Position numbers and translations under genes: made by a program. 41,629 nt of DNA from a virus. Its lineage: Duplodnaviria > Caudoviricetes. Under the pieces are notes generated by a model. That model was not told the origin of the DNA, did not search any database, and was given only the letters and a program-made list of their open reading frames with translations. Position 1 is the stretch's first letter; each line of letters begins with the position of its first letter. The DNA lies in the IMG/VR virus record IMGVR_UViG_3300021082_000060, positions 1 through 41,629 of that record; one strand, written 5' to 3'. This document shows, piece after piece, positions 758-40,101 of the stretch.

Positions 758-1234
758 TCACCGCTTGGGCGGTGTCTTCCCGCCGCCCTTGGGACGCCCA
801 GGCTTGCGCCTGGGGGCGGGCGGCGGCTCCTCCCGTACCTGGGTCACGGCGACCCAGACGCGGTCAAGCTCTTGAAGCTCCTCGTACTTCGCCTGCATTC
901 GCTCCAGTTCGTGCAGCGCGTCCTGCAACAAAACCGTGCGCAGATCAGGCGTGTTCATTACCGATTCGATCCGGCGATACCCGCCACCCTCCACCCGATC
1001 GACCGACAAGCTGACGTATTGCCGCGTGAGGGTCTGGGGATTGACGAAAATCGCCACCAGCTGGCGGACCTGCTGGATGCGGTAGGCCTCGGCTGCAATC
1101 GAGTCGTCCCATTCCAACTCGGCATACAGCGCCGAACTGGGATGCGCGCGCGCCCACTCCACCGCAGCCTTCGGTTGGATCAGGCCGCCGCGCTCCAGCC
1201 GCAACAGCTCGCTGGCGACGTTCTCCTTGTTCAT
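758..1234 (-). CDS. Accessory protein of the RAMP/pentamer-array module (158 aa, MNKENVASELLRLERGG...)
   Basis: ATG at 1234 overlaps the RAMP gene stop (ATGA) and has a GGAG RBS. Contains EWDDSIAAEAYRIQQVRQL and a basic C-terminal tail (PRRKPGRPK). Confidence 0.8.
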   Translation of the reverse strand: MNKENVASELLRLERGGLIQPKAAVEWARAHPSSALYAELEWDDSIAAEAYRIQQVRQLVAIFVNPQTLTRQYVSLSVDRVEGGGYRRIESVMNTPDLRTVLLQDALHELERMQAKYEELQELDRVWVAVTQVREEPPPAPRRKPGRPKGGGKTPPKR

Positions 1235-1953
1235 ACGCTCCTGATCTCCATTAGTTCGTCGGTCACCACCTCGAAACGACCAAACCCAAGGCCGTTGGAG
1301 TTGGGGGAGTTGGGCCGGCCTTCGCCGATGCCGACCTGCTTGCCGGCGCGGGCCATCAAATTGAGCAAATCGATTGCCGAGAACTGATCGACGTCCCATT
1401 CGATCGACACCTGGGCCGACCACTCACGCCACATCGGGCGCCAACGGATGTCGGCCACGCCGCTGTCATTTCTAACTGGTGCTTTGTAGGGCTGCGGCGT
1501 GCCGATGATCTTCACCAACTGGCTGCCATCCTCGCTGTCGGTGCCGTCGGCGATGACGAATACCGACAGTTTTGCGTGGGTCATCCTGAAGCCGACGAGG
1601 CGGCAGGCGTCGATGATGGCGTTGCGAAAGCTGGGTGCCGGGATGCCGCACCAGCCCTCGGTGGAGATGTGCATAGCGTCCCGATACAGCTGCTCGAAAT
1701 CCTTCGGCTGGCGCACCTTGCGGCCACGGCTCTGCTGTCCGGCGCGCTGGGTGGCCTCCATGATCCGTTGCTGTTTGGCACTGAATGCATGTTGGACATA
1801 GGGGCTGAGGCCCCGGATGTTGAATCTCGCCACGCCGAGGTTGGGTGGCGTGATCTTGAGTGCCGGCACTGCGGGTGCGGCGGGCTTGTTTATCTCGGTG
1901 GTTTGGGTGCTGGCCTGTTTGCGGACAGGTGGGATACGCTTCGGTGCAGCCAT
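1231..1953 (-). CDS. Stand-alone Cas7-like RAMP protein (Vipr-like effector)
   Basis: RAMP hallmarks: N-terminal beta strand (FNIRGLSP), GIPAPSFRNAIIDAC (cf. IPGSSLKG motif) and C-terminal Gly-rich loop GIGEGRPNSPNSNGLGFGRFEV. No other cas genes are present. Confidence 0.85.
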   Translation of the reverse strand: MAAPKRIPPVRKQASTQTTEINKPAAPAVPALKITPPNLGVARFNIRGLSPYVQHAFSAKQQRIMEATQRAGQQSRGRKVRQPKDFEQLYRDAMHISTEGWCGIPAPSFRNAIIDACRLVGFRMTHAKLSVFVIADGTDSEDGSQLVKIIGTPQPYKAPVRNDSGVADIRWRPMWREWSAQVSIEWDVDQFSAIDLLNLMARAGKQVGIGEGRPNSPNSNGLGFGRFEVVTDELMEIRSV

Positions 1954-2046
1954 GGTGTTTGCTCCAATCAGACACTGTGGTCAGGGTCGCGGCAGCGGTC
2001 GGAAGCTGCTGTCGCGACCCGCACCCTAATATTTCTCACTGAACGG

Positions 2047-2080
2047 TGTCAACGTCTACATCTAGCTTGACAGCGTCAAG
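2047..2080. promoter_or_regulatory. Divergent promoter/operator region
   Basis: TTGACA on the minus strand (2052-2047) and plus strand (2067-2072); inverted repeat CTTGAC-agc-GTCAAG at 2066-2080; lies between divergent genes. Confidence 0.45.
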
Positions 2081-2119
2081 GTAGAGGGGCACAAGGAGGG
2101 CGCACACAAGGAGACAGAG

Positions 2120-2287
2120 ATGACCTACCGCATTACCAACCAAACCCTCGGCACCAGCATCATCGTGGATCAGCTGCCGCCCGGCGTCAGCGTCGGCGTG
2201 CATGACATCGGTCCGTCGTGGAACAACCAGCCGCCGCCGCAGTCGATCGTGGAGGAGCTACCGGCGAAAGACGACGACGCACCGTAG
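2120..2287 (+). CDS. Small hypothetical protein (55 aa, MTYRITNQTLG...)
   Basis: AAGGAG RBS, ATG at 2120, TAG at 2285-2287; below the ORF-track cutoff. Confidence 0.6.
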   Translation: MTYRITNQTLGTSIIVDQLPPGVSVGVHDIGPSWNNQPPPQSIVEELPAKDDDAP

Positions 2288-2370
2288 CCCGGACATAGGT
2301 GCGGCCCGGACGTGTCGAGCGCACCGGGCCGCGGAAAGCATACACACAAGAGACTGGTGTTATATGAGCG

Positions 2371-2408
2371 AAGGGCCGGTGGCTGGCAATCCCCACCGGC
2401 CCTTTGTT
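2371..2408 (+). terminator. Putative intrinsic terminator
   Basis: AAGGGCCGGTGG...CCACCGGCCCTT stem followed by TGTT. Confidence 0.5.
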
Positions 2409-2474
2409 CGATCCCAGGTAGCCGCCAAGCCGACCTGGAGAGTGTGTGTCCAACCCAGAACGAAAGGACCACCG

Positions 2475-2852
2475 ATGGTCAATAAGCGGCCTGTGGATAA
2501 AAAGGCAAGCGCCCCCGCGCGGTTCCCAGAACATTTTGACCGGGAAGTGACCCCGCGACTCGCCGCGATGTGCCGCGTGTGGGGGAATCTCGTGGCGTGC
2601 GACGCCTACACGTTCGGTGAGGCGCTGGCGCTGATCTGGGCGCGCGCCTGGAAGCTGGGTGCCGGGTATCTGCCGGCTCCGGTGCAGGACGAACTGCGCG
2701 ACTGGCTGGTCACTGAACTGTCAGCGAGTATCCTCGACGACGACCCGCCCCCCGGCGTGCTCTCGCCAAGCGCCGCACTGCGCCTCTGGGCGAGCCTGAG
2801 CCACGTCACGGATCAAACCGACCAGGGGGACCACAGCAATGGCCAGGGGTAG
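2475..2852 (+). CDS. Hypothetical protein upstream of the primase/helicase
   Basis: AAAGGA RBS and ATG at 2475 (MVNKRPVDKK); overlaps the next gene. Confidence 0.6.
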   Translation: MVNKRPVDKKASAPARFPEHFDREVTPRLAAMCRVWGNLVACDAYTFGEALALIWARAWKLGAGYLPAPVQDELRDWLVTELSASILDDDPPPGVLSPSAALRLWASLSHVTDQTDQGDHSNGQG

Positions 2853-4032
2853 CCGGCCATCATTCCGCGCCTCGCGGCAGCCTCTGCCAAGCACGCTGTC
2901 ATCGATCGCCGGACACCTGCGGACCGACCAGGGATGGAAGGACCGCCTGCAATTCAACGAGTTCCACGCCCGCCCCGAGATCCTCAACGGGCACGACGTG
3001 CTGGAGCCGATCGATGACATGCACGTCCTCCAGGCGCAGGAACGCCTGCAACACGACGGGTTCTTCCAGGCCAAGAAGGAGACGGTGCGCGACGCGCTGA
3101 CCCTGGTTGCAGGCGAGATCACCTATCACCCGATCCGCGACTGGCTGGTCGGGCTCAAGGGCAAGTGGGACCAGCTGGGACGGGTGGATCACTGGCTGGT
3201 GGACTGCTTCGGCTGCGACGACAGCCTCTACGTGCGTGCCATTGGCCGCATGTTCCTTATCGCCATGGTGGCCAGGATCATGCGCCCCGGCTGCCAGGCG
3301 GACTACATGCTCGTGCTGGAGGGCGCGCAGGGCATCCAGAAGAGCCGCGCCTGCCGGGTCCTGGCCGGTGAGGAGTCATTCGACGACAACCTGCGCCTCG
3401 ATGACCCGGTGCGGACGTCCATGGCGCTCCGCGGCAAGTGGCTGCTGGAGGTGTCCGAGATGGACGCCTTCAAGGGCAAGAGCATGGACATGCTCAAGGC
3501 CTTCGTCACCCGCCGGGTCGAGCACTACACCCCGAAGTATTCCCGCTCGGTCGTGGTGGAGCCGCGCCAGTGCCTGTTCATTGGCACGCAGAACGGGCGG
3601 TTCAGCTACCAGGACCTGTCCGGCGCCCGGCGCTTCTGGCCGGTGAGCGTGGGCGAGATCGACCCGGCACGCCTCGCGGGTATGCGTGAGCAACTGTTCG
3701 CCGAGGCGCTGGCCCTGTTCGACGTAGGTGAACCCTGGTGGCCTGATGGCACGATGGAGGAAGCGCACATCAGGCCGGTGCAGGAGGACAGACGCGAGGT
3801 CGAGGCCTGGGTCGAGATAATCGAACCGTGGCTGCACGGGACCAGCAGGCCAGCCCAACCCCTGGCGCTGAAGCAGATCTGGCTCGACTGCCTGAAGGGC
3901 ACCGAGGACCGCTACAATCAGGAGATCTCCCGCCGCATCGCCAACGCCCTGCGCTTGCTGGGATGGGAGGACAAGCACAACGGGAAGGCGAGAGTCTGGT
4001 CGGAAAAATCTATCCCAGGCCTTGGCCCCTAA
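2839..4032 (+). CDS. VirE/VapE-family P-loop ATPase (phage primase-helicase type)
   Basis: YHPIRDWL..WD...RVDHWL, VARIMRPGCQADYMLVLEGAQGIQKS (Walker A), FIGTQN and GARRFWPV motifs. Confidence 0.9.
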   Translation: MARGSRPSFRASRQPLPSTLSSIAGHLRTDQGWKDRLQFNEFHARPEILNGHDVLEPIDDMHVLQAQERLQHDGFFQAKKETVRDALTLVAGEITYHPIRDWLVGLKGKWDQLGRVDHWLVDCFGCDDSLYVRAIGRMFLIAMVARIMRPGCQADYMLVLEGAQGIQKSRACRVLAGEESFDDNLRLDDPVRTSMALRGKWLLEVSEMDAFKGKSMDMLKAFVTRRVEHYTPKYSRSVVVEPRQCLFIGTQNGRFSYQDLSGARRFWPVSVGEIDPARLAGMREQLFAEALALFDVGEPWWPDGTMEEAHIRPVQEDRREVEAWVEIIEPWLHGTSRPAQPLALKQIWLDCLKGTEDRYNQEISRRIANALRLLGWEDKHNGKARVWSEKSIPGLGP

Positions 4033-4215
4033 CAAACTGAACTGAATAACTAGGGGGTCGAGTAGCGCGGGGGGAGGGGGGCTGTTACCATTCTATGGTA
4101 TATATCAGTTATTCAGTTATTCAGTTAGTTATATAGGTATATCAACGGGATGGAGGACTAACCGGAGACTAACCGAGAAGTGACTGAGTGTCGGTTGGAA
4201 CGTAACTGACATATT
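4033..4215. other. AT-rich repeat region, candidate replication origin
   Basis: AACTGAATAACT (4040-4051) is inverted relative to overlapping AGTTATTCAGTT copies (4107-4126); CTAACCG direct repeats near 4158-4175; directly after the helicase gene. Confidence 0.55.
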
Positions 4216-4245
4216 ATCAGACCGGAAGCCCAAGGATTATGTGAG

Positions 4246-4956: not shown

Positions 4957-4978
4957 CGTGGAATAAAGTTGCGCGCTG

Positions 4979-5395
4979 ATGGGCGAAACTGTTCCCGATG
5001 CGCGTGCTAGCACTTCAGTTGCCCGTAGGCCGGGTCAGTTGTGGCAAAAAGGCCAGAGCGGAAACCCGAAGGGCAGGCCTCGCTCGCCCTACGATCTGCC
5101 TGCGCTCTGTCGTGAGCACACTGCTGAGGCCGTCAGGCGGCTGGTGCAGATCATGCGTGCCGAGGACGACGGGCGCGCTCTGGCAGCCATCCAGCAGCTG
5201 CTGGATCGTGGTTGGGGTCGACCAATTACCCCGATCGTCGACGAGACCGAGGGGACCAGTTTGACGTTGTTGCATTTGATTGCGGCGCGGCGTGTTGCCG
5301 AAACGTTGCAAGCCGTGGCGGAGGGGAAAACCGAGAACGAATCGGGCGACTCCTCCAAGCCTGTGGTCGATTATAGTGTTCCTGCCCTGGAATAG
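4979..5395 (+). CDS. terS: Terminase small subunit-like protein (DUF5681-type)
   Basis: WQKGQSGNPKGRP and LLDRGWGRP motifs typical of this TerS-like family. Confidence 0.7.
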   Translation: MGETVPDARASTSVARRPGQLWQKGQSGNPKGRPRSPYDLPALCREHTAEAVRRLVQIMRAEDDGRALAAIQQLLDRGWGRPITPIVDETEGTSLTLLHLIAARRVAETLQAVAEGKTENESGDSSKPVVDYSVPALE

Positions 5396-5396
5396 T

Positions 5397-5510
5397 CGTT
5401 AGAACAAACGCGGCGTGGCACGACGGGGCCTGTCCCGTACAGGCCCGGCCGGGCTCGTCAGGGCAGGGCAGGCATGACATGGCACAGGGGCGGCATCCTG
5501 CCGCCGCCCC
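5397..5510 (+). ncRNA. Solitary GGY-NN guide unit 1
   Basis: Leader CGTTAGAACAAACGC, 11 pentamers at 5412-5466, GGCA at 5467-5470, 3 more pentamers, then a GGGGCGGC/GCCGCCCC hairpin at 5487-5510. Confidence 0.8.
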
Positions 5511-5518
5511 AGCCGCCC

Positions 5519-6098: not shown

Positions 6099-6147
6099 TG
6101 GAAGTCTCCTTGTGTTCGCTCGACAAGGAGGAACATAGACACAAGCC

Positions 6148-6176
6148 TTGACACAAGCAAGGGGCAATCGTATGTA
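6148..6176 (+). promoter_or_regulatory. Sigma70-like promoter
   Basis: TTGACA-N17-TATGTA upstream of the gene at 6208. Confidence 0.55.
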
Positions 6177-6207
6177 TCGGGTGTCGAGCAACACAAGGAC
6201 ACAGACC

Positions 6208-7074: not shown

Positions 7075-9069
7075 GCTCCTGTTGTGCCGGTGGAACTCAT
7101 CGTCGATCCAGGCATAGCTCGACGCCGCTTCCGCCACGCCATTGCGCACCGCCACAGCCAATGCCGCACGCACATACTGCGCGTATCCCACGCTGCCCGA
7201 CGTCTCGTTGTATAGCTCGTTCATGCCGCTTGGGTCGTTCGGCATGTGCGGCACGTCTTCCGGGTGCATCGCTACGGCGCGCATGCCCGCCTCCAGCCAG
7301 GACAGGTACTTCGGCCCGACCAGCACCTGACCAGCCGCATGCGCCACCGGAGCGCCGCGCGTGACCTCCCACAGCGCCTCGTCCGACTTATCGACGACCG
7401 TCATCGTCTCGTTCTGGCACTTGACCGGGAACGGTGGCACCGGCCACGGCCCGCCGCTGTAGTGATCGACCGGGACAAACGTGTCCGCATCGGTGATCGC
7501 CGCGGTGAGGCTGCACGTATATACAAGGCCGGTGTTGTATGGGCAGGGCGCGGAGCGTGGCCACGCCTCCCCGTTGGTGCGCTGAACCTCGGAATCGATC
7601 TTCCAGACCAACGGTTCCGACCACTCGTCGAACCCGAGTTGCACGCACATGCCGTAGACCAGCGACTCAAACGCACACTGCCAGAACACCGCGTAGGTTC
7701 CGGACGGATGCGCCGGGGTGCCCTGCGATCCACCGAATTGCCGGGCGCGGAACACCGCCAGGATCGGGTCCTCGTTGGCCATGTCCTTCAGCGCCTCGGC
7801 GCGGACCCCTTCCATGTGCTGGTGGAACACCGAGCGGGCCAGCAGCCAGCGTGGCGGGTCGTCCGGCGAGGCGACTGCCGCATACAGCTTGTTGCGCAAC
7901 GGCCATGCGCCATACCGCCCGGCCCAGGTGTAGCGACCAGACGCCGGCTCGTCCAGAATTTCGATGTTGGCCTGGAACTGCAACGCCTCTAGGTAATACA
8001 CGTCCCCGGTCAGCAACCACGGCAGGTAGCTACATGCGGGCGAATGTCCGCAGTCATAGGCAACGATGCCCTTGGTCATCGGCACGATCGGATCGCCGCC
8101 CTTCGGGTAGCTGGTCAGCGTCGGGTAATCCCGGATGAGATCGAGAGGCGCGCTGGTCACATAGTCCCTGAGATGCATGGACATCGTGCCCGACGCCTCG
8201 CCCTGGGCGATGACCGTCTCGGTGTTGTTCCCTTTGCACAGCCATTGTGCGGACCAGCCGGTCAGGATGCCGATGTCGGGTCGATCGCCGGTCCAGCCCA
8301 TGCCGGTGACCATGCCGCTGAACCCCATCACGCTATACGTTTGCGGAGCCAGATCGGTGATGAACTGGGCGAGGATCGTGCCGTCATAGTGCGGCACCTT
8401 GCCCTCGGCGATCAGTTGCTCGCGTGAAACACGCACCGGCCTGGGCGCCGACTGCCAGCGCCAGCGGGCATACCACGGATGGCTGGGCACCTCGATCGTG
8501 GCGATCAGCATGTCGCCGTCCCAGATCTCAGCGGTGTAGGCGCCAAGATTGGCTGGCGTCAGCGATGCGACCAGGGGCACGCCGAGCTCGAAGACGACCT
8601 CTTGCCGCCCACCGTCCGCGTCGGGGCGGAACCATACGGTGAGGCCGGGCAGCGTGCCGTCCTGTCTGGGCGCGCGGTAGCAGTGCTGGGTGAACTGGCC
8701 TTCGGGGTCGACGTAGTCCCCCATGTCCTCGGCCCGGACCTGCTCGTAATCCGTCTCGCCGGATGGTGTGCGGATGACAACGGCCAGCCCCTCCCCGATT
8801 GGCTCCGGCTTGGGCGGTTCAGGTGTCGGCAGGGTGTTGTCGATGACCGGCGGGGCTGTCGGTAGGATATTATCGATGAACGGCGGTGCCACGCCGCCCC
8901 ACGTGCCGTCAGGCGGCTCTGGCGTCGGTGGTGTGGGCGTGGTGACCGCGTTCTCCAGCGCCAGCACACGGGCGTCCAGGGCGGCGATCGCCGCATCGGT
9001 GGCGCCGGCATGCTCCTCTAGAGCAGCGACACGCTGTTCCAGCTGTGGATCGTCCGTGGGCTTGGGCAT
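7039..9069 (-). CDS. Large protein: N-terminal coiled coil, Pro-rich linker, putative alpha-helical carbohydrate-active-like domain
   Basis: About 677 aa ORF with IDN(I/T)LPT repeats, GDRPDIG and DCGHSP..YLPWLLTGDVYYLEALQF motifs; function is inferred only. Confidence 0.6.
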   Translation of the reverse strand: MPKPTDDPQLEQRVAALEEHAGATDAAIAALDARVLALENAVTTPTPPTPEPPDGTWGGVAPPFIDNILPTAPPVIDNTLPTPEPPKPEPIGEGLAVVIRTPSGETDYEQVRAEDMGDYVDPEGQFTQHCYRAPRQDGTLPGLTVWFRPDADGGRQEVVFELGVPLVASLTPANLGAYTAEIWDGDMLIATIEVPSHPWYARWRWQSAPRPVRVSREQLIAEGKVPHYDGTILAQFITDLAPQTYSVMGFSGMVTGMGWTGDRPDIGILTGWSAQWLCKGNNTETVIAQGEASGTMSMHLRDYVTSAPLDLIRDYPTLTSYPKGGDPIVPMTKGIVAYDCGHSPACSYLPWLLTGDVYYLEALQFQANIEILDEPASGRYTWAGRYGAWPLRNKLYAAVASPDDPPRWLLARSVFHQHMEGVRAEALKDMANEDPILAVFRARQFGGSQGTPAHPSGTYAVFWQCAFESLVYGMCVQLGFDEWSEPLVWKIDSEVQRTNGEAWPRSAPCPYNTGLVYTCSLTAAITDADTFVPVDHYSGGPWPVPPFPVKCQNETMTVVDKSDEALWEVTRGAPVAHAAGQVLVGPKYLSWLEAGMRAVAMHPEDVPHMPNDPSGMNELYNETSGSVGYAQYVRAALAVAVRNGVAEAASSYAWIDDEFHRHNRSSWHPAWGWCIT

Positions 9070-10265: not shown

Positions 10266-10274
10266 GGTGGCCCC

Positions 10275-12824
10275 ATGACGCTGCACCTGCAACCTGATAT
10301 ACTGGCGCCAGATACGAGCGATTCACCACCACCTGCGGGCGGCGCGTCCCCCAACGACAAGCCGCCCGACTTTTCCGCCTTCGACTTCGCCCTCCAGCGC
10401 TACAATCGCGCCCCCATAGCCTTCGTGAAGGAGGTCCTCCTTCAGGAGCCCGACGCGTGGCAGATCGAGGCGCTCAGGGGCTTCGCCCGCGGCTTCACCC
10501 GGCACAGCATCAAAAGTGGTCACGGTGTCGGCAAAGCACTTACGTTATCGGAACTAGTTCCAACGCCGGATGGGCAGAGACGATGGGGTGATCTGCAACC
10601 CGGTGACCGGCTGTTTGGCCGTGATGGCGAGCCGACGCACATCGTAGCGCGCCATGACCAGGGCGTGCGGCCAATCTACCGGGTGACGTTCGATGACGGC
10701 ACGAGCTGCCGCGTTGACGGCGAGCATCTGTGGACCGTGCGCGGTCGCGCGCAGCGGCGGACTGATCGGGCTGGCGGAAAGACCGGCGACTTCATCACCC
10801 TCACTACCGCCGAGATCCTTCGCCGTGGGGTAAAGCGAGCCAACGGTGCAACGCTGGCGCGTCAGTGGGAGCTACCACCCCATGGCCCAGCGCAGTATCC
10901 GGCGCAGCATGTGTCGCTCGCGCCTTATCTGCTCGGGTTCTATCTGGGCGACGGCATGCTGAACAAATCTGGGGTGCAGTTCAGCGGCAGTGAGGCAAAG
11001 ACCCAGGCTCTTATCGAGACATGTGCCGCGCTCGGTATCAGCCACAGCACGCCTCATGGTGATGGAGATCGATGGGTAGTCCGGCTTCGCGGCATAAGCG
11101 CAACGCTCAACGAACTTGGGTTGGGCGGCAAGTTGTCAGGCTCGAAGTTCGTCCCGCTGATCTACAAGGAGAACACTCCAGCCGTCCGTCTCGCCGTGCT
11201 GCAAGGCCTGATGGACACTGACGGTTACTGCGACGCTCGCGGTATCGCTGTTTACACCAGCGTCTCGCAACAACTAGCCGAGGATGTCGCATGGCTGGTG
11301 CGATCGCTCGGCGGCAAGGCTCACATGGGCGCCGCGCAGCGAAGCCACTACCGCGACTCTGACGGTGCGCTGGTGCGCGTGCAGGACCACTACGACGTGA
11401 CAGTGCGCCTGCCACCGGACATGCCGCTGTTTACCCTGCCGCACAAAGCCAACCGCGTGCAGCCCTGTGAGCCGCGCTACCTGGCGCGGTGGATCGAGGC
11501 GATTGAGATGGACGGTGAAGAGGAGGCGATGTGCGTTACAGTTGACGCGCCGGATGGCCTCTATCTCGCGAATGACTTCATCGTCACGCACAACTCATGC
11601 TTGGCTGCCTGGGTGGTGCTGTGGTTCATCTGCACCCGCGCACCGTTCAAGTGTGCGCTGACCGCGCCATCGGCGCCGCAGCTGTTCGACGTCTTATGGC
11701 CCGAGCTCCTCAAGTGGATGGGCCGCATGCCCGAGCAGTGGCAGGCGCTGTGGGACGTGACCACAGACCACATCACCCTCAAATCGGACAAGGAGTGCTT
11801 CGTCACCGCCAGGACATCGAGGCCTGAAACGCCCGAGGCGATGGCAGGATTGCACTCTCGCAACATCCTGCTGGTGGCAGACGAGGCATCCGGCATCGAC
11901 GAGAAGGTCTACGAGGCTGCCAGCGGCTCAATGAGTAGTTCCGGAGCCATTACGTTACTCATTGGCAATCCGACACGAGACTCTGGGTTCTTCTGGCGCA
12001 CGCACACGCTGGAGCGCGATCGCTGGCGCTGCATGACCGTGTCCAGTGCCGAGAGCACGCGTGTCGACCCGAGCTACATCACCGAGATGTCCGAGCGCTA
12101 CGGCAGCGAGAGCAACGCGTTCAGGGTTCGGGTGCTGGGCCAGTTCCCGTCCGGCTCCGACGACGTGTTCATCCCCGGCGAACTGGTCGACAGCGCGATG
12201 AACCGCGACATGGCCCTCGATGTCGGCGCACCGATCATCTGGGGAATCGACGTCGCCAGGTTTGGTGCCGATGCTTCCGTGCTGATCAAGCGCCAGGGCA
12301 GTTGCGTGACCGAGCCACCGCGGCGCTGGCGCAACGTGGACCTCATGGTGCTCGCAGGCGCCATCAAGCACGAATACGATCTGGCCAACACCGCGCGCCC
12401 CATGCTGATCGTGGTGGATTCGATCGGCATCGGCGCTGGCGTGGTCGATCGCCTCCAAGAGCAGGCGCTGCCGGTGCTGGGTGTGAACGTCGCCGAGTCG
12501 CCGGCCAACCAGACCAACTACATGCGCCTTAGGGACGAGCTCTGGGGAAGAACACGGGAATGGCTGGCGACACGCACCGTGCGTTTGCCCCGCGACGACC
12601 TGCTCCGCGCCGATCTTGTGGCGCCGAAATACACGTTCAGCTCTACGGGCAAGCTGACTATCGAGAGCAAAGAGAGTATGCGGCGTAGAGGACTGCCCAG
12701 TCCCGACAGCGCCGATGCGTTAATGTTAACGCTCGCGCAACAAGGGCTGATGGTAACGTCAGCGAACCAGAGTTGGTTATATGATACGCAGCCGGTGATT
12801 AGCAGCATTCCCGGCATGGAGTGA
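10275..12824 (+). CDS. terL: Terminase large subunit containing an intein
   Basis: Walker A SGHGVGK|S, Walker B LLVADEASG, GNP coupling motif, nuclease WGIDVARFGAD and SPDSADAL. Confidence 0.95.
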   Translation: MTLHLQPDILAPDTSDSPPPAGGASPNDKPPDFSAFDFALQRYNRAPIAFVKEVLLQEPDAWQIEALRGFARGFTRHSIKSGHGVGKALTLSELVPTPDGQRRWGDLQPGDRLFGRDGEPTHIVARHDQGVRPIYRVTFDDGTSCRVDGEHLWTVRGRAQRRTDRAGGKTGDFITLTTAEILRRGVKRANGATLARQWELPPHGPAQYPAQHVSLAPYLLGFYLGDGMLNKSGVQFSGSEAKTQALIETCAALGISHSTPHGDGDRWVVRLRGISATLNELGLGGKLSGSKFVPLIYKENTPAVRLAVLQGLMDTDGYCDARGIAVYTSVSQQLAEDVAWLVRSLGGKAHMGAAQRSHYRDSDGALVRVQDHYDVTVRLPPDMPLFTLPHKANRVQPCEPRYLARWIEAIEMDGEEEAMCVTVDAPDGLYLANDFIVTHNSCLAAWVVLWFICTRAPFKCALTAPSAPQLFDVLWPELLKWMGRMPEQWQALWDVTTDHITLKSDKECFVTARTSRPETPEAMAGLHSRNILLVADEASGIDEKVYEAASGSMSSSGAITLLIGNPTRDSGFFWRTHTLERDRWRCMTVSSAESTRVDPSYITEMSERYGSESNAFRVRVLGQFPSGSDDVFIPGELVDSAMNRDMALDVGAPIIWGIDVARFGADASVLIKRQGSCVTEPPRRWRNVDLMVLAGAIKHEYDLANTARPMLIVVDSIGIGAGVVDRLQEQALPVLGVNVAESPANQTNYMRLRDELWGRTREWLATRTVRLPRDDLLRADLVAPKYTFSSTGKLTIESKESMRRRGLPSPDSADALMLTLAQQGLMVTSANQSWLYDTQPVISSIPGME
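10536..11594 (+). mobile_element. Class 3 (Ala1) intein with LAGLIDADG homing endonuclease, 353 aa
   Basis: Starts ALTLSELVPTPDG; block B EHLWTV; LAGLIDADG-like LLGFYLGDG and LQGLMDTDG; block F AMCVTV; ends IVTHN/S. Confidence 0.9.
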
Positions 12825-13163: not shown

Positions 13164-13339
13164 GCCCGCTCGCAATCATCCTGATCGTCGTGCTGCTGGT
13201 GCTCCTTCTAGGAGGAGGATTCTACGGCTACCGCGGCGGCTACTACGGCGGCAGTGGATACGGCAGCTACGGCATCGGCATCGTGGGAGTGATCGTCATC
13301 GTGTTGCTGATATTGCTGCTGATGGGACGCATCGGATGA
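13160..13339 (+). CDS. Small Gly-rich two-TM membrane protein (DUF3309-like)
   Basis: IILIVVLLVLLLGGGFYGYRGGYYGG...IVIVLLILLLMGRI; ATGA coupled on both sides. Confidence 0.7.
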   Translation: MSPLAIILIVVLLVLLLGGGFYGYRGGYYGGSGYGSYGIGIVGVIVIVLLILLLMGRIG

Positions 13340-16092
13340 GCGGCATCCTGCCACCCGGCGCACCGCCCGGCCTGCGCCAGGGTGTTAACCCGATGGCGCC
13401 GCAGGTGGGCCAGCAAGGCATGAACCCGCCGCAACAGGGTCTGCTGGCGCCCAACACACAGAGCTACGGGGCACCGCCGCTGCCGCCGATCGAGGGTCTG
13501 GTGCGACCGATGGGCCAGCGACCCACCGACCATCAGGTCATCGCCACCTTGTTGCCTAGGCGCAAGGACGAGGACATCCCGGACGACCCTACCGACGATC
13601 TGCCACCGGAGATCCGGCCTTACGCGCTGGGCCTGCGCCCGAGCGTGCAGCCATCCTCGACCCCGTGGGTGCAGGAGGTCGTTTACGCTCGACTCGGCAA
13701 AGAGGACAGCGAGATCAGCGAGATCAACCGATACTACTTTGGTATCGCGCGAAACTATGACGAGGAGTTGAGTAACCAGAGAGTTACGGCGTCGGAATAT
13801 TACAACGGCAAGGGCTTCGGCGACGAGCCGGCGCTGAAGGGTCGTTCTCAGTTGGTGATGACTGTTGTTAGGGACACCATCCGCAGCACCCTCCCGAGCC
13901 TCCTGCGCGTGTTCACGGGCGTCGAGGACCCGGTGCATTTCGAGCCGATATCATCGGAGATATCCGGCAACGACAAGCTGGCAACTATGTTATCCCGCCA
14001 GGCGACAGACTACGCCCGCTGGGCGCTGTTCGTGGCTAATCCAGGATGGTCGATCCTGCATGATGCCCTGTTGGACGCGCTGACCCGCAAGGCCGGCTGG
14101 GTGCGTTGGTCGTGGGGTAAGAAGCAGCAGATCCGCACTGAGGTGGCCGAGGGCCTCATCCTGCCGCAACTGCAGATGCTGCTCGCCGAGCCGGGCATCG
14201 AGGCGCAACGCATCGTGCGCCGCCCGATGACCAGGGCCGAGCAGGAAGCGATGGCCAGGACGCCCGAGGGCCAGATGTATCTGGGGCAGGGTGGGCCTCC
14301 GGAATACTGGAGCGCTACCATCACACGCAGCGTGCAGCAGGCGTGGCCGGTGGTTGAATCGGTGCCGTCCGAGTGCGTGTGGGTGGTGTCTGACGCGTCC
14401 ACCGTCAAAGAGGCGCGCGGTGTGTTCCACGTCAGGGACGTATCGGCCTCCGACCTGATCGAGATGGGGTTGGATGAGCACGCGGTGCTGCGGGCCGGCG
14501 GTTCAGCGCCCACGACGCAGTGGCGGCGCGAGGCGATCGCCAGGGACAGCGCGTCCGGGCACCACATGCACGGCGGGCCACCTAACGACCGCTCCATGGG
14601 CATGATCCGCTACATCGAAGGCTGGATCAGGTGCGACGCCGACAACGACCACAAGGCCGAGTTGCTGCACACCCACAGCCTGGGCGACGACTGCCGGCTG
14701 GTGCAGTGGGAGCGCACCGACGAAATCCCGCTGAGTTGCTTCACCCCGTATCGCGAGCCGGGGAGGATCATCGGGTCGTCTGTGTCCGACATGGTGATGG
14801 ACCTGCAACGCCTGCAGTCCAGGGTCATGAGGGCGACCCTCGATAGCCTGGGTCAGGCGATGTATCCGAGGACGGTGATCACCCTCGGTCAGGTGAACAT
14901 GTCCGACGTGCGCCAGACCGCTATCGGCTCGATCATCCGCGTCGCGCAGCAGGGCGCCGTGCAGGAGCTCGTGAAGCCGTTCGCCGGGGCAGCGGCGCTG
15001 CCGATCATGCAGTTGCTGGAGGGCGTCAGGGAGAGCCGCACCGGCATCACCCGCGCCTCTCAGGGCCTGACCGTCGACGAGCTCCAGAGCACCGCACCGA
15101 TCGCCGTAAGCCAGCAGACATCCGCCGCGCAGGACCGGCTGGACATGATGGCGCGCACCTTGGCCGAGACCGGTCTGGCGCCGCTATACAGCGGTCTGCT
15201 GCGCATGCTCGCCAAGCAGCAGGACCGGCCCAACGTGATCCGCATCCGGGGCGAGTGGATATCGATCGATCCCAGAGCGCTGGGCACGATGTGGGAAGCC
15301 GCGGTCGAGGTCGGCGGCAAAGGCATGCCGATGGAGCGATTGGCCATGCTCGCCCAGATCGCCGGCAAGCAGGAACAGATCATCACCAACTACGGGTTGC
15401 ACAATCCGCTGGTTGGCGTGCCCGAGTACAGGAATACCCTCGCGCGCATGCTGGAGACCGCCAACATCGCCGACGTCAGCAACTACTTCAAAGAGCTGCC
15501 CGACGACTGGCAGCCGCCGCCGCCCAGCCAGGGGCCAACCCCGGAACAGGTGCTGGCCATGGTGCAGCAGCAGAAGACCGCCGCGGACCTGGAGACGGAT
15601 CGCGCCAAGGCGCAGACCGATCGGTCCAAGGCGCTGTCGGACGACGATCGCGAGCGGGATAAGGCGGCGCTGGACGCATGGGTGGAGCTCTGGAAGATCG
15701 GCGCGCAGTTCGGCACGCCCGTGCCATCGCTCGACGAGCTACGCGCGGCGATGCAGCCCGACCAGCCCAACCTGGGCCTCATCGGCGACCTGCCGCCGCC
15801 CACGTCCCCGCAGCAGCCGGCGACCGGCATGCAGGGGCCGCAGCAGCCCAAGCCGGGGCCAGCCTCGCCGATGATGGGGATGGCGCCGGGACAGGGCGGA
15901 GGCCTGGGGGCCCAGCGTCCGCAGGCGCCGCTGGCTCCGCCGGTAGGCTCCACCCCGCCCGACACCGCTCATATGGTTCGCCAGGCGCTCGCCACCGGTA
16001 ACTTACCGACGAATTACGGTCAGATCGCCGATCGTGCGGTGGCCGGTAGCATCGCCGGCATGGGCGGGCCTTCGGTCAGGCCGGGCGCATGA
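13336..16092 (+). CDS. Portal protein with Pro/Gln-rich N- and C-terminal extensions
   Basis: Downstream of terL; EYYNG...GRSQLV...VRDTI...LPSLLRVF and LLDAL..KAG motifs of podophage portals. Confidence 0.88.
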   Translation: MSGILPPGAPPGLRQGVNPMAPQVGQQGMNPPQQGLLAPNTQSYGAPPLPPIEGLVRPMGQRPTDHQVIATLLPRRKDEDIPDDPTDDLPPEIRPYALGLRPSVQPSSTPWVQEVVYARLGKEDSEISEINRYYFGIARNYDEELSNQRVTASEYYNGKGFGDEPALKGRSQLVMTVVRDTIRSTLPSLLRVFTGVEDPVHFEPISSEISGNDKLATMLSRQATDYARWALFVANPGWSILHDALLDALTRKAGWVRWSWGKKQQIRTEVAEGLILPQLQMLLAEPGIEAQRIVRRPMTRAEQEAMARTPEGQMYLGQGGPPEYWSATITRSVQQAWPVVESVPSECVWVVSDASTVKEARGVFHVRDVSASDLIEMGLDEHAVLRAGGSAPTTQWRREAIARDSASGHHMHGGPPNDRSMGMIRYIEGWIRCDADNDHKAELLHTHSLGDDCRLVQWERTDEIPLSCFTPYREPGRIIGSSVSDMVMDLQRLQSRVMRATLDSLGQAMYPRTVITLGQVNMSDVRQTAIGSIIRVAQQGAVQELVKPFAGAAALPIMQLLEGVRESRTGITRASQGLTVDELQSTAPIAVSQQTSAAQDRLDMMARTLAETGLAPLYSGLLRMLAKQQDRPNVIRIRGEWISIDPRALGTMWEAAVEVGGKGMPMERLAMLAQIAGKQEQIITNYGLHNPLVGVPEYRNTLARMLETANIADVSNYFKELPDDWQPPPPSQGPTPEQVLAMVQQQKTAADLETDRAKAQTDRSKALSDDDRERDKAALDAWVELWKIGAQFGTPVPSLDELRAAMQPDQPNLGLIGDLPPPTSPQQPATGMQGPQQPKPGPASPMMGMAPGQGGGLGAQRPQAPLAPPVGSTPPDTAHMVRQALATGNLPTNYGQIADRAVAGSIAGMGGPSVRPGA

Positions 16093-17100: not shown

Positions 17101-17110
17101 GGGGGACCAT

Positions 17111-18193
17111 ATGTCTGAAACAACCGGGCCGGCCCCGCCAGCCGCGCCCACTGCCGACACCAGCAGCAGCGACTTTGCGCCCGCACCAGACACCCGGCCA
17201 GAGCTTAGTGTCAGCGACGCGGCGAGGATGCTGCGGAACGCCAGGCGCGCCCAGCCAGCGCCGCAGCAAGGGCTACCCAACGTGGAGCAGCCTGCCGGCT
17301 TCGGGCACAATTCCGGCGAGGCGGCGCCGCAACCACCGCAAACACCAGCCCAACCCGGTGGCATGTCTGCGCTGGAACGCGCCTTAGGGCTCCAGCCCGA
17401 CTCTGACAATCCTGACGTCCCACATGAAACACCCGGCAGTACGCCTGCCCAAATCCCGGCAGAGATCGAACTGGAGGGCCGGCGCTACACGCAGGCCGAG
17501 TTGGCTGCCGCAGTGCGTCAGGCGCAGGACTACACCCAGAAGACCCAGCAGCTATCCGCCCAGGCACGCCAGCTACAGGCGCAGCAGCAGGCCCTGGCAG
17601 CCGCCCTGCCGCTGATCCAGCCCGAGATTGAGGCGCTGCAACGCCGGCTTGCCGAGGCGCCGCGCCCCGACCCGCAGCTACGCCAGACCGATCCGGCGGC
17701 GTATTGGGACCAGCTGGCGACTTGGCAGGACGCGCAGATCGAGCACCAGCGCGTCTTGGCGATCCAGACGCACCAAGCCCAGGCCCGCGAGGCAGCGGTC
17801 GCCCAGGCTGTCGATCAGGCGAACCACGAACTAGCCCAGAAGTATCCGTTCTGGTCGGACCCGCAGCAAAGGCGGGAGATCCAGCAGGATATCATCAGCT
17901 GGGCCAGAACGCAGGGCTACACCGATCAGGAACTGCACGGCCTGACCTCGGCAAAATATCTTGAAACACTTTTCAAGGCCTCGCTCTATGACCGCTACCA
18001 GGCCCGCATTAAGCCCCAGGCGACGCAGCCTGCTGTGGGGCATGCGCCGCGCGGCACCGCCCCCCCGCCGCCGCCTGCCGCGCGGGTCAGGGAGGCGACC
18101 GAGACGTTCGAGCAGCGGCCCACCGTGGCCAACGCTGCCGCTTTGATCGGTGCCCGGCGGGCACCACGCGGCAATGGACACACCCAATGGTAG
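17111..18193 (+). CDS. Capsid scaffolding protein
   Basis: Disordered N-terminus, DYTQKTQQL motif and coiled coils; upstream of the major capsid gene. Confidence 0.8.
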   Translation: MSETTGPAPPAAPTADTSSSDFAPAPDTRPELSVSDAARMLRNARRAQPAPQQGLPNVEQPAGFGHNSGEAAPQPPQTPAQPGGMSALERALGLQPDSDNPDVPHETPGSTPAQIPAEIELEGRRYTQAELAAAVRQAQDYTQKTQQLSAQARQLQAQQQALAAALPLIQPEIEALQRRLAEAPRPDPQLRQTDPAAYWDQLATWQDAQIEHQRVLAIQTHQAQAREAAVAQAVDQANHELAQKYPFWSDPQQRREIQQDIISWARTQGYTDQELHGLTSAKYLETLFKASLYDRYQARIKPQATQPAVGHAPRGTAPPPPPAARVREATETFEQRPTVANAAALIGARRAPRGNGHTQW

Positions 18194-18228
18194 CCTGTCA
18201 CACTGGCAACATTCCTGGGGGAACGCAC

Positions 18229-18939
18229 ATGAGACACGTATTGCTTGCCGCCACAGCGATCGCCGCTCTTGCCTTCGTGCCGTCAGCCAATGCGACACTG
18301 CAACTGAGCATCGGCGCCAATGGCTCGACCTTCACCTGTGCGGACGGTCAGTTGGGCTGTGACCTGTCAGGCGGCGCCAACAACTTGCTGACGGTCAACA
18401 CGTTGGTGGGCGGCGCCTTCGTGCAGATCACCCTCGTGCAGAGCGTCGCCGGGACGGTCAATTCGCTCCAGATGTCGTCCAGCAACATCGAGAACCAGAG
18501 CGACGCACCGATCGTCGTCACCCTGCTGGCGAGCCAGACGGACTTCCTCGGGCCGGTCTCCGCGATCAGCAACAGTGGCTCGCTCACGTTCAACAACAAC
18601 GTGGGCGCGACCGACAGCACGCTGAAGTTCTGGGCGGACGCGGCGAACGTGCAGGGCGCCAACCCGACCAACACGCCTGGCACCTTGCTGGAGACCGTGA
18701 CGGGAGCCGCGACCACTAACCCGGACTCTTTCGCTGGCAGCAATGTCGCGCTGTTCGCCGCGGGCGGGCCGTTCTCCATGACCGAAGGCGCGGCGCTGGC
18801 GCTGATCACGGGCGGCTCGATCACCGGCTTCAATCAGTCGATGGTGACCACGGCTGCCGTGCCCGAACCGGCCTCCCTGGGTATCCTTGGCCTCGGCATG
18901 CTGGGCCTCGGCATGGTGCAGTATCGCCGCCGCAGCTAG
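18229..18939 (+). CDS. PEP-CTERM sorting-domain exported protein
   Basis: Signal peptide MRHVLLAATAIAALAFVPSANA; Ser/Thr/Asn-rich body; C-terminal VPEPASLGILGLGMLGLGMVQYRRRS. Confidence 0.9.
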   Translation: MRHVLLAATAIAALAFVPSANATLQLSIGANGSTFTCADGQLGCDLSGGANNLLTVNTLVGGAFVQITLVQSVAGTVNSLQMSSSNIENQSDAPIVVTLLASQTDFLGPVSAISNSGSLTFNNNVGATDSTLKFWADAANVQGANPTNTPGTLLETVTGAATTNPDSFAGSNVALFAAGGPFSMTEGAALALITGGSITGFNQSMVTTAAVPEPASLGILGLGMLGLGMVQYRRRS

Positions 18940-18946
18940 ACGGCAC

Positions 18947-19047
18947 GGGGACTGGATTGCCCCAGTCCCCACCTTGCCTGCCGAGCCACGACGGGCCCTG
19001 CCCCGCCCTGTCATGCCACGCCTAGCCACGCCGTCTTTGTTTTAGCG
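18947..19047 (-). ncRNA. Solitary GGY-NN guide unit 2
   Basis: Leader CGCTAAAACAAAGAC, 10 pentamers at 19032-18983, GGCA at 18982-18979, 2 more pentamers, then a GGGGACTGG/CCAGTCCCC hairpin at 18947-18970. Confidence 0.8.
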
Positions 19048-20260: not shown

Positions 20261-20572
20261 ATGCCCACGCTCTATGAACGCTACGACCCGGTCACCACGC
20301 GTTACACCGAGATCGTCACCGACTCGGAGACTGGGCTGCCGATCATTACTTTTACTCAGGATACCAAGCCGATCGTCGAGGCATGCAAGCGGGCGGCCAG
20401 CAACTTCACCGGCACCAGCAAGACCGGCTTCACCCGCGTGGCCAGCATTCCAAACGTGGTGGTGCAGCGGCTGATGCAGACCGGCATCTGGTACGACGAG
20501 AAGGCGATGAACGTGTGGCTGAACCAGCGGGACAACAGAGTGTTCAGGACGGACGACGGACGACGTCTCTAG
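20261..20572 (+). CDS. Conserved post-capsid virion-region protein
   Basis: TQDTKPIVE, VASIP and WLN..DN..FRT pattern; directly after the capsid gene. Confidence 0.75.
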   Translation: MPTLYERYDPVTTRYTEIVTDSETGLPIITFTQDTKPIVEACKRAASNFTGTSKTGFTRVASIPNVVVQRLMQTGIWYDEKAMNVWLNQRDNRVFRTDDGRRL

Positions 20573-36115: not shown

Positions 36116-36124
36116 GAGGCAGCG

Positions 36125-37729: not shown

Positions 37730-37739
37730 CATGCGATCA

Positions 37740-38027
37740 TCAAAGGATGTGTCGCAGGAGCCACGCGCCGATGATGCAGAAGCTAATCATGAGGATTGGC
37801 AGCAATATGACGGCATAGCCGATGATTACGAACCTGTCGTTCCGCTCTTCATCGGACAGTGCGCGCCGTTCTGGCCGCGTAAATCGCGTGACCGGCTCAG
37901 GTGGATGATTCGCGCGGTGACGCCCAACCACAAGCGCCAGCACGTAAAGCAGTCCAAATACGGCAGGAGCTATCCATAACTCTAGCGTCATTGCAGTCGT
38001 CCTGTGATTGAGAAGCTGATTGGCCAT
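37740..38027 (-). CDS. Small two-TM membrane protein (antisense; start uncertain)
   Basis: Two hydrophobic segments; moron or superinfection-exclusion-like position. Confidence 0.45.
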   Translation of the reverse strand: MANQLLNHRTTAMTLELWIAPAVFGLLYVLALVVGRHRANHPPEPVTRFTRPERRALSDEERNDRFVIIGYAVILLPILMISFCIIGAWLLRHIL

Positions 38028-38231
38028 TTGCCGCCCGGCTTCCTGGCGATACTGGCGCTGAACATCGTGGTCGTCGGTGGGCTGTTCTACCTTGAGGACC
38101 GGCTTAGCGCGGGGCGCGAACGCGTGTTGCTCAAGATGATAGAGGCGTGTCAGCAGCAGCGGTCAGGGATGAAGAGTACGGGCGAGGCACTCTGGTCTGG
38201 GGGACCTGTGACCACCTCGCCCGCTGCCTGA
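38004..38231 (+). CDS. Single-TM protein, possible holin
   Basis: LPPGFLAILALNIVVVGGLFYL at the end of the late operon. Confidence 0.45.
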   Translation: MIEKLIGHLPPGFLAILALNIVVVGGLFYLEDRLSAGRERVLLKMIEACQQQRSGMKSTGEALWSGGPVTTSPAA

Positions 38232-38248
38232 GCGTCTGAGCCCAGGCG

Positions 38249-38283
38249 ACCGCCGCATCGGGGAGCCACCTCGGTGCGGCGGT
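38249..38283. terminator. Hairpin between convergent genes
   Basis: ACCGCCGCATCG...CGGTGCGGCGGT stem. Confidence 0.55.
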
Positions 38284-38288
38284 ATCCA

Positions 38289-38486
38289 CTAGAATTGTTC
38301 CGGTTGAAACTGTTCCGGACGCAGGGCCGCGGTCAGCGACCCGTCCTTGTCGAGCACGCTCAACGCGAGCTCCAGGCGCAGCATCCTGGATGACATCTGA
38401 AGCATGGCGCCTCTCAGGGTAGCCACCTCCTCTTCCAGCCTGATGACGTGCGTCACCAGGGTGAACCGGTCGGTCCTGGCGGTCAT
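38289..38486 (-). CDS. Small coiled-coil hypothetical protein (MTARTDRF...)
   Basis: TGATG coupling with the ERF gene. Confidence 0.55.
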   Translation of the reverse strand: MTARTDRFTLVTHVIRLEEEVATLRGAMLQMSSRMLRLELALSVLDKDGSLTAALRPEQFQPEQF

Positions 38487-39295
38487 CACAGACCCTCTAT
38501 GACGTCGGCGTCTTCTGAGGCGCTGCTGCCGTCGTCCTTGGTCAGCCAGTCGGCCTGCACCCTGGAGCGCATGAGCATGTATCGCTGGCGCTCCTCGCCG
38601 TGCGGCAGGGCGGTGAGCGCCGCCACGCCAGGGCGCCATTCCAGCAGCTTGCGGGCTTCGTCCGAGTCTTTGATGCGGGCAGCCGCTGTCTCGAACATCG
38701 CGACGATCTCTGGGTAGTTGGGCGGTGCGTCGGCGGGCTTGCGATCCACGTTAGGCGGTGACGGACGCTGAAGGCGCTGGGCTTCGCCGTCGTCATCGGT
38801 GGGATCGTCGGCCAGTACGATATTCAGGCACATCTGCAATAAATAGCGGCGGCAATAACTTATGGTGCTTCCCACCGCTTGCACCGGGGTCCGCGCCCGC
38901 TGAGCTATATCGACAGGGCTATCCAAATAATTCGTTTCGCTATACCCGTCGCGATGGCTAACGGTGCAGGTGATGCGCATCCAGCCATCTTTTGGCGGCA
39001 CATCGCAGCCGAAGCGGATGGACAGCCCGTGCGCTGAGTAGATGGGCCTCGCCGCTGCGTCGATGGCTTCCAGTGTGGCGTATTTACGATTAACGCCAGG
39101 GTTAACACGATCGCGCAGGACCGGGCCTATCTCCGCTTCTACGGATGCCATTGCGGCGTTGAATGCTCGCTTAGCCTGCTTGTCTTCGGCCTCCTGTTGC
39201 AGGCGCAGGAGTTCGGAAAACTTGTTCAGGTCAAATTCCGGTTCACGCGCTGCGCGCTCAATGAACGACATAAGAGGGGAGAGTTCACTGCTCAT
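38486..39295 (-). CDS. erf: ERF-family single-strand annealing protein
   Basis: KYATLEAID, HGLS, GSTISYCRRY and DDDG motifs. Confidence 0.88.
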   Translation of the reverse strand: MSSELSPLMSFIERAAREPEFDLNKFSELLRLQQEAEDKQAKRAFNAAMASVEAEIGPVLRDRVNPGVNRKYATLEAIDAAARPIYSAHGLSIRFGCDVPPKDGWMRITCTVSHRDGYSETNYLDSPVDIAQRARTPVQAVGSTISYCRRYLLQMCLNIVLADDPTDDDGEAQRLQRPSPPNVDRKPADAPPNYPEIVAMFETAAARIKDSDEARKLLEWRPGVAALTALPHGEERQRYMLMRSRVQADWLTKDDGSSASEDADVIEGL

Positions 39296-39325
39296 GGGAG
39301 ATGTCTCTTGTCTCTTGTGTGGTGG

Positions 39326-39793
39326 TCAGAGGGTCTTGACGCGCAGGCTGCGGCTCTGGGTCAGCCGGCAGCCGGGCAGGTCTTCGCCGGCCTTCAGGGC
39401 TTTGACGATCGCTGGCTTGTCGGGCACCACGGTGAGCAGGCTGTCGGCCAGCCGCGTGTCGGGGTCGATCTCAAGTTTTGCTGGGTTTGTCTGATAGTAA
39501 ACCGTTGCAGTCGGGCGCTCGACTTTGGTCTGGTTGCCGATCGTCCGCATCAAGAAGTCGAGGAACTCGGTGTTCCTGTCGGCGCGGGCCTCCAGGCGCT
39601 TGGCGCGCTCGCGGGCAATCACCGCCGAGCGGTTGTCCTGGTCGATGCGCTCCGCAACCCGGTCGAATACCCGGAACAGATCGGTCTCGCTCTCGATCGC
39701 CGCGGTGACGACGTCATCCTCGTAGCCCTCGGCGCGCAGCTGCTCTTGCAGCGCGTAGGCTCTGGCGGTCACGGCGTGAAAGTCAGCCATCAA
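39326..39793 (-). CDS. Gp157-like protein
   Basis: Coiled coil plus PDKPAIVKALKAGEDLPGCRL...SLRVK; adjacent to the recombinase. Confidence 0.8.
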   Translation of the reverse strand: MMADFHAVTARAYALQEQLRAEGYEDDVVTAAIESETDLFRVFDRVAERIDQDNRSAVIARERAKRLEARADRNTEFLDFLMRTIGNQTKVERPTATVYYQTNPAKLEIDPDTRLADSLLTVVPDKPAIVKALKAGEDLPGCRLTQSRSLRVKTL

Positions 39794-39864
39794 AATCTCC
39801 TTGCAGGTCGGCTTGGCAGAGCTTAACTAGGTAAAGTCTTATGCGAATGCAAGGAGAAAACAAC

Positions 39865-40101
39865 GTGCGATACGTTTACAAGAGCCCGCGTATGGAGCGC
39901 GAGCGGGACGCGGTGCTAGGGCCTCTGCTGACCCAGCGCGGTATGGTCACGTTCCTGGCGCGTGAATTGGGCATCTCCAAAGCCGCGGTAGCGCAGTGGT
40001 ACAGCATTCCCGACATGCATATCGCGGCGATCAGCAAGCTATTGGACATCCCGCAATACCAACTGCGCCAGCAGCCGCGCCGTCCGAAGGTGGCGGCGTG
40101 A
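39865..40101 (+). CDS. Cro-like HTH regulator
   Basis: AAGGAG RBS before GTG at 39865; FLARELGISKAAVAQWYSIP. Confidence 0.8.
   Translation: MRYVYKSPRMERERDAVLGPLLTQRGMVTFLARELGISKAAVAQWYSIPDMHIAAISKLLDIPQYQLRQQPRRPKVAA

Follow-up and report, generated by a model that had tools for sequence, protein, structure and literature searches.

Guides of a predicted VIPR phage system match nearby genes of relatives more closely than the owner's own copies

The DNA analysed here, a stretch of 41,629 nucleotides from a tailed virus (IMG/VR record IMGVR_UViG_3300021082_000060; hereafter the window), carries a predicted VIPR system, in which a guide-binding protein, Vipr, is accompanied by an accessory protein, Vap, and by guide RNAs (vrRNAs) of alternating GGY and NN units; the target DNA is read by the NN pairs, with one base, mostly that at the wobble position, left out between them (10.64898/2026.04.26.720920). 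Decoded by this rule, five guides nearly match genes of the window itself. These wobble-skipping guides have a better match in relatives' versions of nearby genes than in the phage's own, and we consider it probable that they silence co-infecting kin while the linked self allele escapes through any mixture of silent and conservative changes. Guides with a better fit to relatives' gene versions than to their own are likely weapons against kin, and on our best reading the modules of guide and allele would be kin-directed silencing units linked to putatively self-resistant alleles.

VIPR systems are recognised by, among other features, vrRNAs of about 9-16 alternating GGY/NN units, an adjacent vap gene of type vap1-6 and a structured 3' tail (10.64898/2026.04.26.720920). 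By sequence and fold the window's locus is such a system, with a vap-like neighbour and predicted activity, and its parts are as follows.

133..765, minus strand: staggered vrRNA array of 11 guides, 9-11 GGY/NN units each, with 4-nucleotide phase shifts between them
137..186, minus strand: guide g11, matching codons of a Cro-like gene
647..696, minus strand: guide g2, matching vipr codons 138-147
701..750, minus strand: guide g1, matching vap codons 11-20
758..1234, minus strand: vap-like accessory gene, 158 residues, weakly predicted to form an N-terminal winged-helix-like domain and a long helix
1231..1953, minus strand: vipr, 240 residues, predicted from model and fold match to be a RAMP-fold guide-binding protein
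5412..5510, plus strand: solo 5412, a stand-alone vrRNA cassette directly 3' of the stop codon of the terS gene; 3' hairpin z -4.2
18935..19032, minus strand: solo 19032, a stand-alone vrRNA cassette upstream of the major capsid gene; 3' hairpin z -3.8

The structure model of Vipr (pLDDT 84) has its best fold matches among CRISPR RAMP chains of the Cmr/Csm3/Cas7 group (Z 10.7, root-mean-square deviation 3.8, 152 aligned residues), with no solved Vipr structure among the matches listed; 2050 homologs were found, and a glycine-rich stretch at the C terminus is invariant in 70 sequences. Vap belongs to phrog_15946, a family whose function is not known, and its fold matches, to winged-helix and coiled-coil proteins, are weak and not decisive (best Z 6.4); no nuclease fold stands among the matches listed, which does not exclude a nuclease. 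There is no CRISPR-type repeat among the repeat families listed for the window, no cas family in a profile scan of 30 of its proteins and no RNA holder among the matches listed. The 3' hairpins of five solos reach z -2.2 to -4.9, that of the array end z -1.4.

All 13 guides of the window were decoded, and both strands were scanned. The five self sites, with scores as matching bases among those read, and three of the target genes are the following.

1176..1204, plus strand: g1 self site in vap, 15/20; L11 (TTG) and R12 (CGG) synonymous, G16 and Q20 non-synonymous; best relative 17/20
1514..1542, minus strand: g2 self site in vipr, 16/20; L146 (TTG) synonymous, S140 and V147 non-synonymous; five relatives 19/20
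39943..39971, plus strand: g11 self site in the Cro-like gene, 17/20; an Arg and a Leu synonymous, F/Y non-synonymous
5195..5229, minus strand: solo 5412 self site, terS codons 73-84, 21/24; R81 synonymous, I83 non-synonymous
20327..20355, minus strand: solo 19032 self site in gene 20261, 18/20; I/L and F/Y, zero synonymous swaps
4979..5395, plus strand: small terminase-like gene (terS; DUF5681), codons 91-138 common to solo carriers at 87-100%
39865..40101, plus strand: Cro/YdaS-like helix-turn-helix gene (Pfam P22_Cro, E 1e-4, under the curated cut-off)
20261..20572, plus strand: conserved gene 20261, 3' of the major capsid gene (phrog_3982, function not known)

The terS label is our assumption from position and family context, the gene being named by no profile. 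In the window-only scan, three of the five self sites beat all 300 shuffles (P 0.003), and with relatives' alleles included all five guides beat 100 shuffles. The larger mismatches of g1 imply N and K, residues present in 8/17 and 5/17 aligned Vap sequences, so the decode looks real. Other skip rules were rejected: skipping two bases leaves no significant window guide and skipping none leaves one, g7 (P 0.007). That contiguous 15/18 match of g7, at the start of the scaffold gene (17107-17124, minus strand), has its P value before correction for 39 tests and is likely due to chance. Under the wobble-skipping rule, neither the window nor the clade gave a significant match for the other eight guides of the array, g3-g10, and owner mismatches showed no seed-like clustering towards the 3' end of the guide.

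The evidence that carries the argument comes from relatives, collected by Vipr, terS, capsid and Cro searches. The survey set comprised 67 distinct guides of at least 8 units from the window and 28 related loci; shorter or low-complexity guides and the window duplicates L013 and L014 were excluded, and the tests on footprints, haplotypes and pseudo-guides described below used alleles of the named clade. Fourteen of the 67 guides match clade genes better than 100 shuffles, at 12 footprints, and all 14 read codon positions 1-2; the other two registers gave 1 and 0. Three guides whose owner allele was not covered were dropped, and among the 11 testable guides the owner scores under its best relative in 10 and its haplotype is the lowest in 9 (null 3.8, P 0.0016). 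The one guide that departs from this, g11, finds a 19/20 allele in a single run X6 contig (from its listed differences), and scores 16/20 in G001 and L019.

At gene 20261, solo 19032 fits 20/20 in 11 and 19/20 in 2 of 13 related loci, against 18/20 in self. In terS the relation is reciprocal: the window's guide fits the allele of G001 and G002 at 22/24 (20/20 over the first ten units) and its own at 21/24, whereas the guide of G001 and G002 fits the window at 21/24, at this same 5195..5229 site, and its own allele at 18/24. The solo-less G004, G005 and L223 similarly have a 22/24 allele at terS codons 95-106 for the guide of G003 and L019, and relatives' guides match the window itself at 20/20 in the VRR-NUC gene, 18/18 in vipr and 20/22 in the scaffold gene. 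In vipr, R123 (window 1585-1587) is the rare AGG where most relatives have CGN; it lies within the footprint of the first guide of L042 and is a candidate escape from another phage's guide. The first guide of an array matches a relative's vipr or vap in 4/5 distinct array starts (window 701-750 and 647-696; G001, L021, L042), and one array guide common to seven relatives (L133 12360-12419) matches sister-phage terS-like genes at 21-22/24, reading the same RGWG motif as solo 5412.

Guide and target are, moreover, neighbours. For all 14 kin-matching guides the target gene lies at most 1.7 kb from the guide. Seven of them are solos, at 0.07-1.3 kb from the footprint, six directly after the stop codon of terS, the scaffold gene or the large terminase gene (terL); the targets of the seven array guides are vap, vipr, cro or the VRR-NUC gene, no more than 1.7 kb from the array, in a region with 10% of the searchable codons. 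An eighth solo has a weak match of 15/18 in the next gene of relatives, with 13/18 in self. The slots vary in content. The one behind terS holds three different guides across the clade, favouring other lineages' alleles, and the one 3' of terL holds an HNH gene in G001, G002, G003 and L019 and a solo guide in G004 and is empty in the window and G005; this HNH gene lies at 10994-11458 in L135 (the same slot as in G001, G003 and L019), and L218 has its terL-slot entry at 2962-3011. The carriers of the HNH gene and of the solo share Ser AGT at codon 812.

Recombination tracts shared among genomes span the cassette and the adjacent allele in terS and in the scaffold gene, although the tracts do not give the mode of movement. 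Codons 91-138 of terS are 87-100% identical among solo carriers, against 37-96% upstream; G003 and the solo-less G004 are 91-100% identical to codon 90 and 51-71% thereafter; and the scaffold genes of G005 and G001 are 99-100% identical in their 3' half only.

These observations suggest a mechanism. A guide would be copied from a rival's allele, and Vipr would polymerise on it, bind the matching DNA and block transcription, by analogy with VIPRs that have been tested (10.64898/2026.04.26.720927; 10.64898/2026.10.15.759431). A guide against a gene that its owner needs would be tolerable only if the owner's allele mismatches; it would thus last only in the company of a self allele that mismatches, since a guide recombined onto a matching one would silence its own phage, and because of this risk cassette and allele would move together. 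In so mosaic a clade, only guides near their mismatched allele would stay with it. Any difference at a read base would serve escape, silent swaps giving about half.

In the window alone, g1 is not significant (P 0.16) and the best match of g2 lies elsewhere, at 2169-2197 (17/20); we rejected that stretch as the target, as it is out of codon register and relatives' vipr reaches 19/20. Several points weigh against the mechanism proposed above. When IMG/VR was scanned for exact gapped matches to the targets of g11 and g1, neither gave a hit, and a guide-matching AGR at vap R12 or Cro R33 occurs in none of the sampled relatives. The margins between owner and relatives are often 1-2 nucleotides, self matches of 80-90% reach the 80% target threshold of the preprints, so that self may not be fully protected, and several Leu swaps facing antisense guides yield rG:dT pairs, which may be tolerated. 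Guides and alleles are not independent, two footprints each being used by two guides, and the relatives come from few lineages. Finally, of 123 guides taken from distant VIPR loci just 2 had a near-self match, and what is seen here may thus be confined to this clade. One of the two lies 103 bases from its guide: in the unrelated locus L004, the last guide (7460-7509) matches at 17/20 a stretch at 7612 downstream. We take that stretch to be Walker A-like.

The first-pass annotation of this DNA had put the mismatches to another use, claiming that they concentrate in first-position synonymous Leu and Arg swaps and that such swaps are the signature of escape or self-avoidance. Its codons were read correctly: self has TTG at 1202-1204, 1516-1518 and 39967-39969 where the guides imply CTN, and CGN at 1199-1201, 5219-5221 and 39961-39963 where they imply AGN, and 6 of the 15 mismatched dinucleotides in 52 units are synonymous (6/14 without the constant 3' unit of solo 5412). 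Concentration at the five sites is not established, however. Pseudo-guides cut from clade relatives' alleles and matched on mismatch count give 3.1-4.2 synonymous per 14 (P 0.10-0.25), while a less strict null that admits homologs of as little as 55% identity expects 2.5 (P 0.04); among relatives, the synonymous share of differences at codon positions 1-2 is 46% at protein identities of at least 90%, 20% at 80-90% and 13% at 70-80%. In the related-genome alignment of the five footprints, swap-polymorphic Leu/Arg/Ser columns number 6/16, against 43/139 in the same genes (P 0.33-0.57), and TTG and AGR usage, on which the annotation had staked its claim, is for the self codons at these sites no different from background (self TTR at 3/9 Leu against 136/902, or 15%, P 0.14; self AGR at 0/5 Arg against 104/722).

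Self-avoidance itself fared better, as a relative's allele fits better than self for each of the five guides. The swaps are real but weak as its signature, and the polarity of the Arg swaps is opposite: self and most relatives carry the common CGN, and the rare class, AGN, is found on the side of the guide. The guide-matching codon is present in relatives for 4/6 swaps (vap L11, vipr L146, terS R81, Cro L35), and the cleanest self-specific change, in gene 20261, consists of two amino-acid changes, not silent swaps.

Across the clade, the idea that selection specifically favours such first-position swaps of Leu and Arg, with Ser, where guides read, and that these are the principal means of escape or self-avoidance, finds some support, and here the comparison of related genomes proposed in the annotation did give a modest excess in footprints, with test-dependent P values of 0.005-0.18 and no enrichment at the five window sites. 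Swap-polymorphic columns make up 19/35 in the 12 footprints against 118/365 elsewhere in these genes (P 0.008-0.025 by permutation; by block shift, P 0.008 for the count and 0.02 for the rate). Owner mismatches of the 11 guides, reduced from 39 to 34 by removing five 3'-terminal units that match no relative, are synonymous in 16/34 against 8.4-8.8 expected (P 0.005-0.016), and the guides imply AGN at 5/11 Arg columns against a usage of 14% (P 0.013). Much of this traces to one footprint.

5261..5296, plus strand: terS codons 95-106, read by the solo guide of G003 and L019, with four TTG Leu within six codons

Solo carriers have four TTG there and solo-less relatives CTN, and runs of four consecutive TTR Leu occur, among 902, only in terS 95-110, which again favours selection on swaps. 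On the other hand, the T-rich shift extends to wobble bases that guides do not read and to L110 outside the footprint (no sigma-70 promoter was found in the stretch), and with this block removed the signal weakens: owner synonymous mismatches fall to 12/29 against 8 expected (P 0.09-0.11), owner against best relative gives 9/31 against 82/401 (P 0.18), footprints do not differ from their 12-codon flanks (P 0.25-0.34), and the column test stays near significance (15/29, P 0.02-0.05). Since 18/34 owner mismatches are amino-acid changes and the five window sites are not enriched, we regard swaps as the main route as unlikely. A clade-wide swap excess at footprints is suggestive and not proven; what can be said is that Leu/Arg/Ser swaps supply about half of the owner mismatches, at most modestly above clade divergence.

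Swaps are common in this clade to begin with. Between the portal proteins of the window (13336-16092) and G001, 13/918 residues differ, yet 11/53 Ser codons switch class, and both there and clade-wide TCN/AGY switches match single synonymous changes in frequency. When local divergence is matched, Ser swaps reach 19% in the clade and 33% in a Vipr-less sister group; the figure for three phiKMV-like phages is 0.4% and that for six cluster K mycobacteriophages 10%. The corresponding Arg comparison is confounded, as these groups do not use Arg codons alike. VIPR carriage was rejected as the cause of the genome-wide excess, as the sister clade has no Vipr match in 5/5 complete genomes searched, yet its swap rates are as high or higher. 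That point-like selection at the bases read is the only cause is disfavoured: of fourfold sites 1-3 codons from a Ser swap, 52% differ, against 27%, and swaps show no clustering at the scale of footprints. The swaps occupy tracts of a few codons with near-saturated divergence in which wobble bases differ too, a pattern suggestive of finely mosaic old alleles. An excess of Ser switches is known also where no guides are involved (PMC6916188); if guides helped to select the swap tracts, though, our within-clade null is too strict.

A further alternative is that guide and allele together form a drive element, where binding of the rival genome biases inheritance and cassette and allele spread together, guided by RNA and otherwise like a free-standing homing endonuclease. 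Cassettes directly after the stop codon of the target gene, the alternation of HNH gene, solo guide and nothing in the terL slot, tracts covering both footprint and cassette, and the ERF recombinase encoded by the phage would all suit such an element. No nuclease was identified in the VIPR locus, however, tested VIPRs repress and do not cut (10.64898/2026.04.26.720920), and ordinary recombination with selection against self-silencing also yields shared tracts; we therefore think drive quite improbable. That the guides are autoregulators, tuning the phage's own neighbouring genes through imperfect matches, accords with their closeness to the target and self matches of 75-90%, but as relatives' alleles fit better for all five window guides, the terS slot holds three guides favouring other lineages' alleles and many relatives lack cassettes, it seems very doubtful. 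Chance matches or randomly drifting, decayed guides, to which the window-only results for g1 and g2 and the 17/20 match of g2 at an unrelated place might point, are hardly credible and already largely refuted by the 20/20 and 19/20 matches in relatives, the strict codon register and mismatches that spell residues known from homologs.

The remaining genome context is that of a tailed phage. The first 126 nucleotides of the window recur at its end, and it was therefore treated as a circular phage genome of 41.5 kb; the profile scan found SU10-type portal and capsid genes, an ERF recombinase and the Cro-like gene. The large terminase (10275-12824) contains a LAGLIDADG-containing insertion, probably an intein, and alignments with relatives were confined to the parts outside it. 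Between the scaffold and capsid genes lies a gene for a PEP-CTERM protein (18187-18939), found also in L138, where other relatives have a solo vrRNA; around the start of the capsid gene, L136-L142 and L146 gave no solo cassette, though several of these records open only a short way upstream of it. Among phage collection records H2-H30, 25 of mycobacteriophages and 5 of Gordonia phages have distant Vipr-like matches (about 31%).

The window shares with the VIPR systems described (10.64898/2026.04.26.720920) a RAMP-fold Vipr, one vap, GGY/NN guides in a staggered array, the one-nucleotide wobble skip, and guides against other VIPR systems and lysis-lysogeny regulators. It differs in that the sets checked there, in the portions available, held no self match of at least 80%, whereas four of the five window guides match self at 80-90%. 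Solo, or orphan, vrRNAs of F5 satellites and of VIPR-null SUSP1-like phages (10.64898/2026.10.15.759431) are likewise stand-alone guides aligned with wobble skips, and there too self-match lies under rival match, for guides that target vrRNAs; those solos replace vipr-vap or sit on satellites and match vipr, vrRNAs, satellites or REP elements, while the solos of our clade belong to phages that have VIPR, lie next to essential genes for head and packaging, and match relatives' alleles of these. The same preprint says that escape requires amino-acid-determining changes, and the words "leucine" and "homing" are absent from its main text. From T-even phages, free-standing homing endonucleases, intronless homing and marker exclusion (PMC2988022) offer a parallel: the element lies hundreds to thousands of bases from its site in a relative's conserved gene, and flanking sequence is co-inherited. 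As in intronless homing, the site targeted here falls within a conserved gene close by and not where the cassette is inserted, and in one slot an HNH gene can take the cassette's place; unlike in homing endonucleases, specificity is encoded in RNA and swappable, and cutting activity was not identified. Solo cassettes linked to their targets, with guides aimed at each other's alleles, were not found in the literature searched, in the portions available, although the supplementary data of the VIPR preprints may list such cases. We regard them as a new use of the known VIPR system.

A bolder idea, which we put forward tentatively and think rather unlikely, is that solo vrRNA cassettes are RNA-guided allele-exclusion elements: about 100 bases beside an essential gene, paired with a recoded allele, they would borrow the phage's Vipr to exclude relatives' alleles, spread with the allele and fill the niche of free-standing homing endonucleases. 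If true, long cycles of allele exclusion would also explain why Ser/Arg/Leu swaps are several-fold commoner here than in control phages. In the available portions of the VIPR preprints the wobble skip is held to block synonymous escape, and targeting of one's own kind without self-silencing is left open. The clade gives natural matched pairs for this question, the same site in sensitive and putatively resistant form, 1-3 read bases apart and with reciprocal guides, which makes the mismatch tolerance of VIPR, the value of Leu/Arg/Ser swaps against conservative changes, and kin discrimination directly testable. The strict linkage of guides to their target genes constrains how new guides arise and, should the modules bias inheritance, they would be an RNA-guided counterpart of homing endonucleases.

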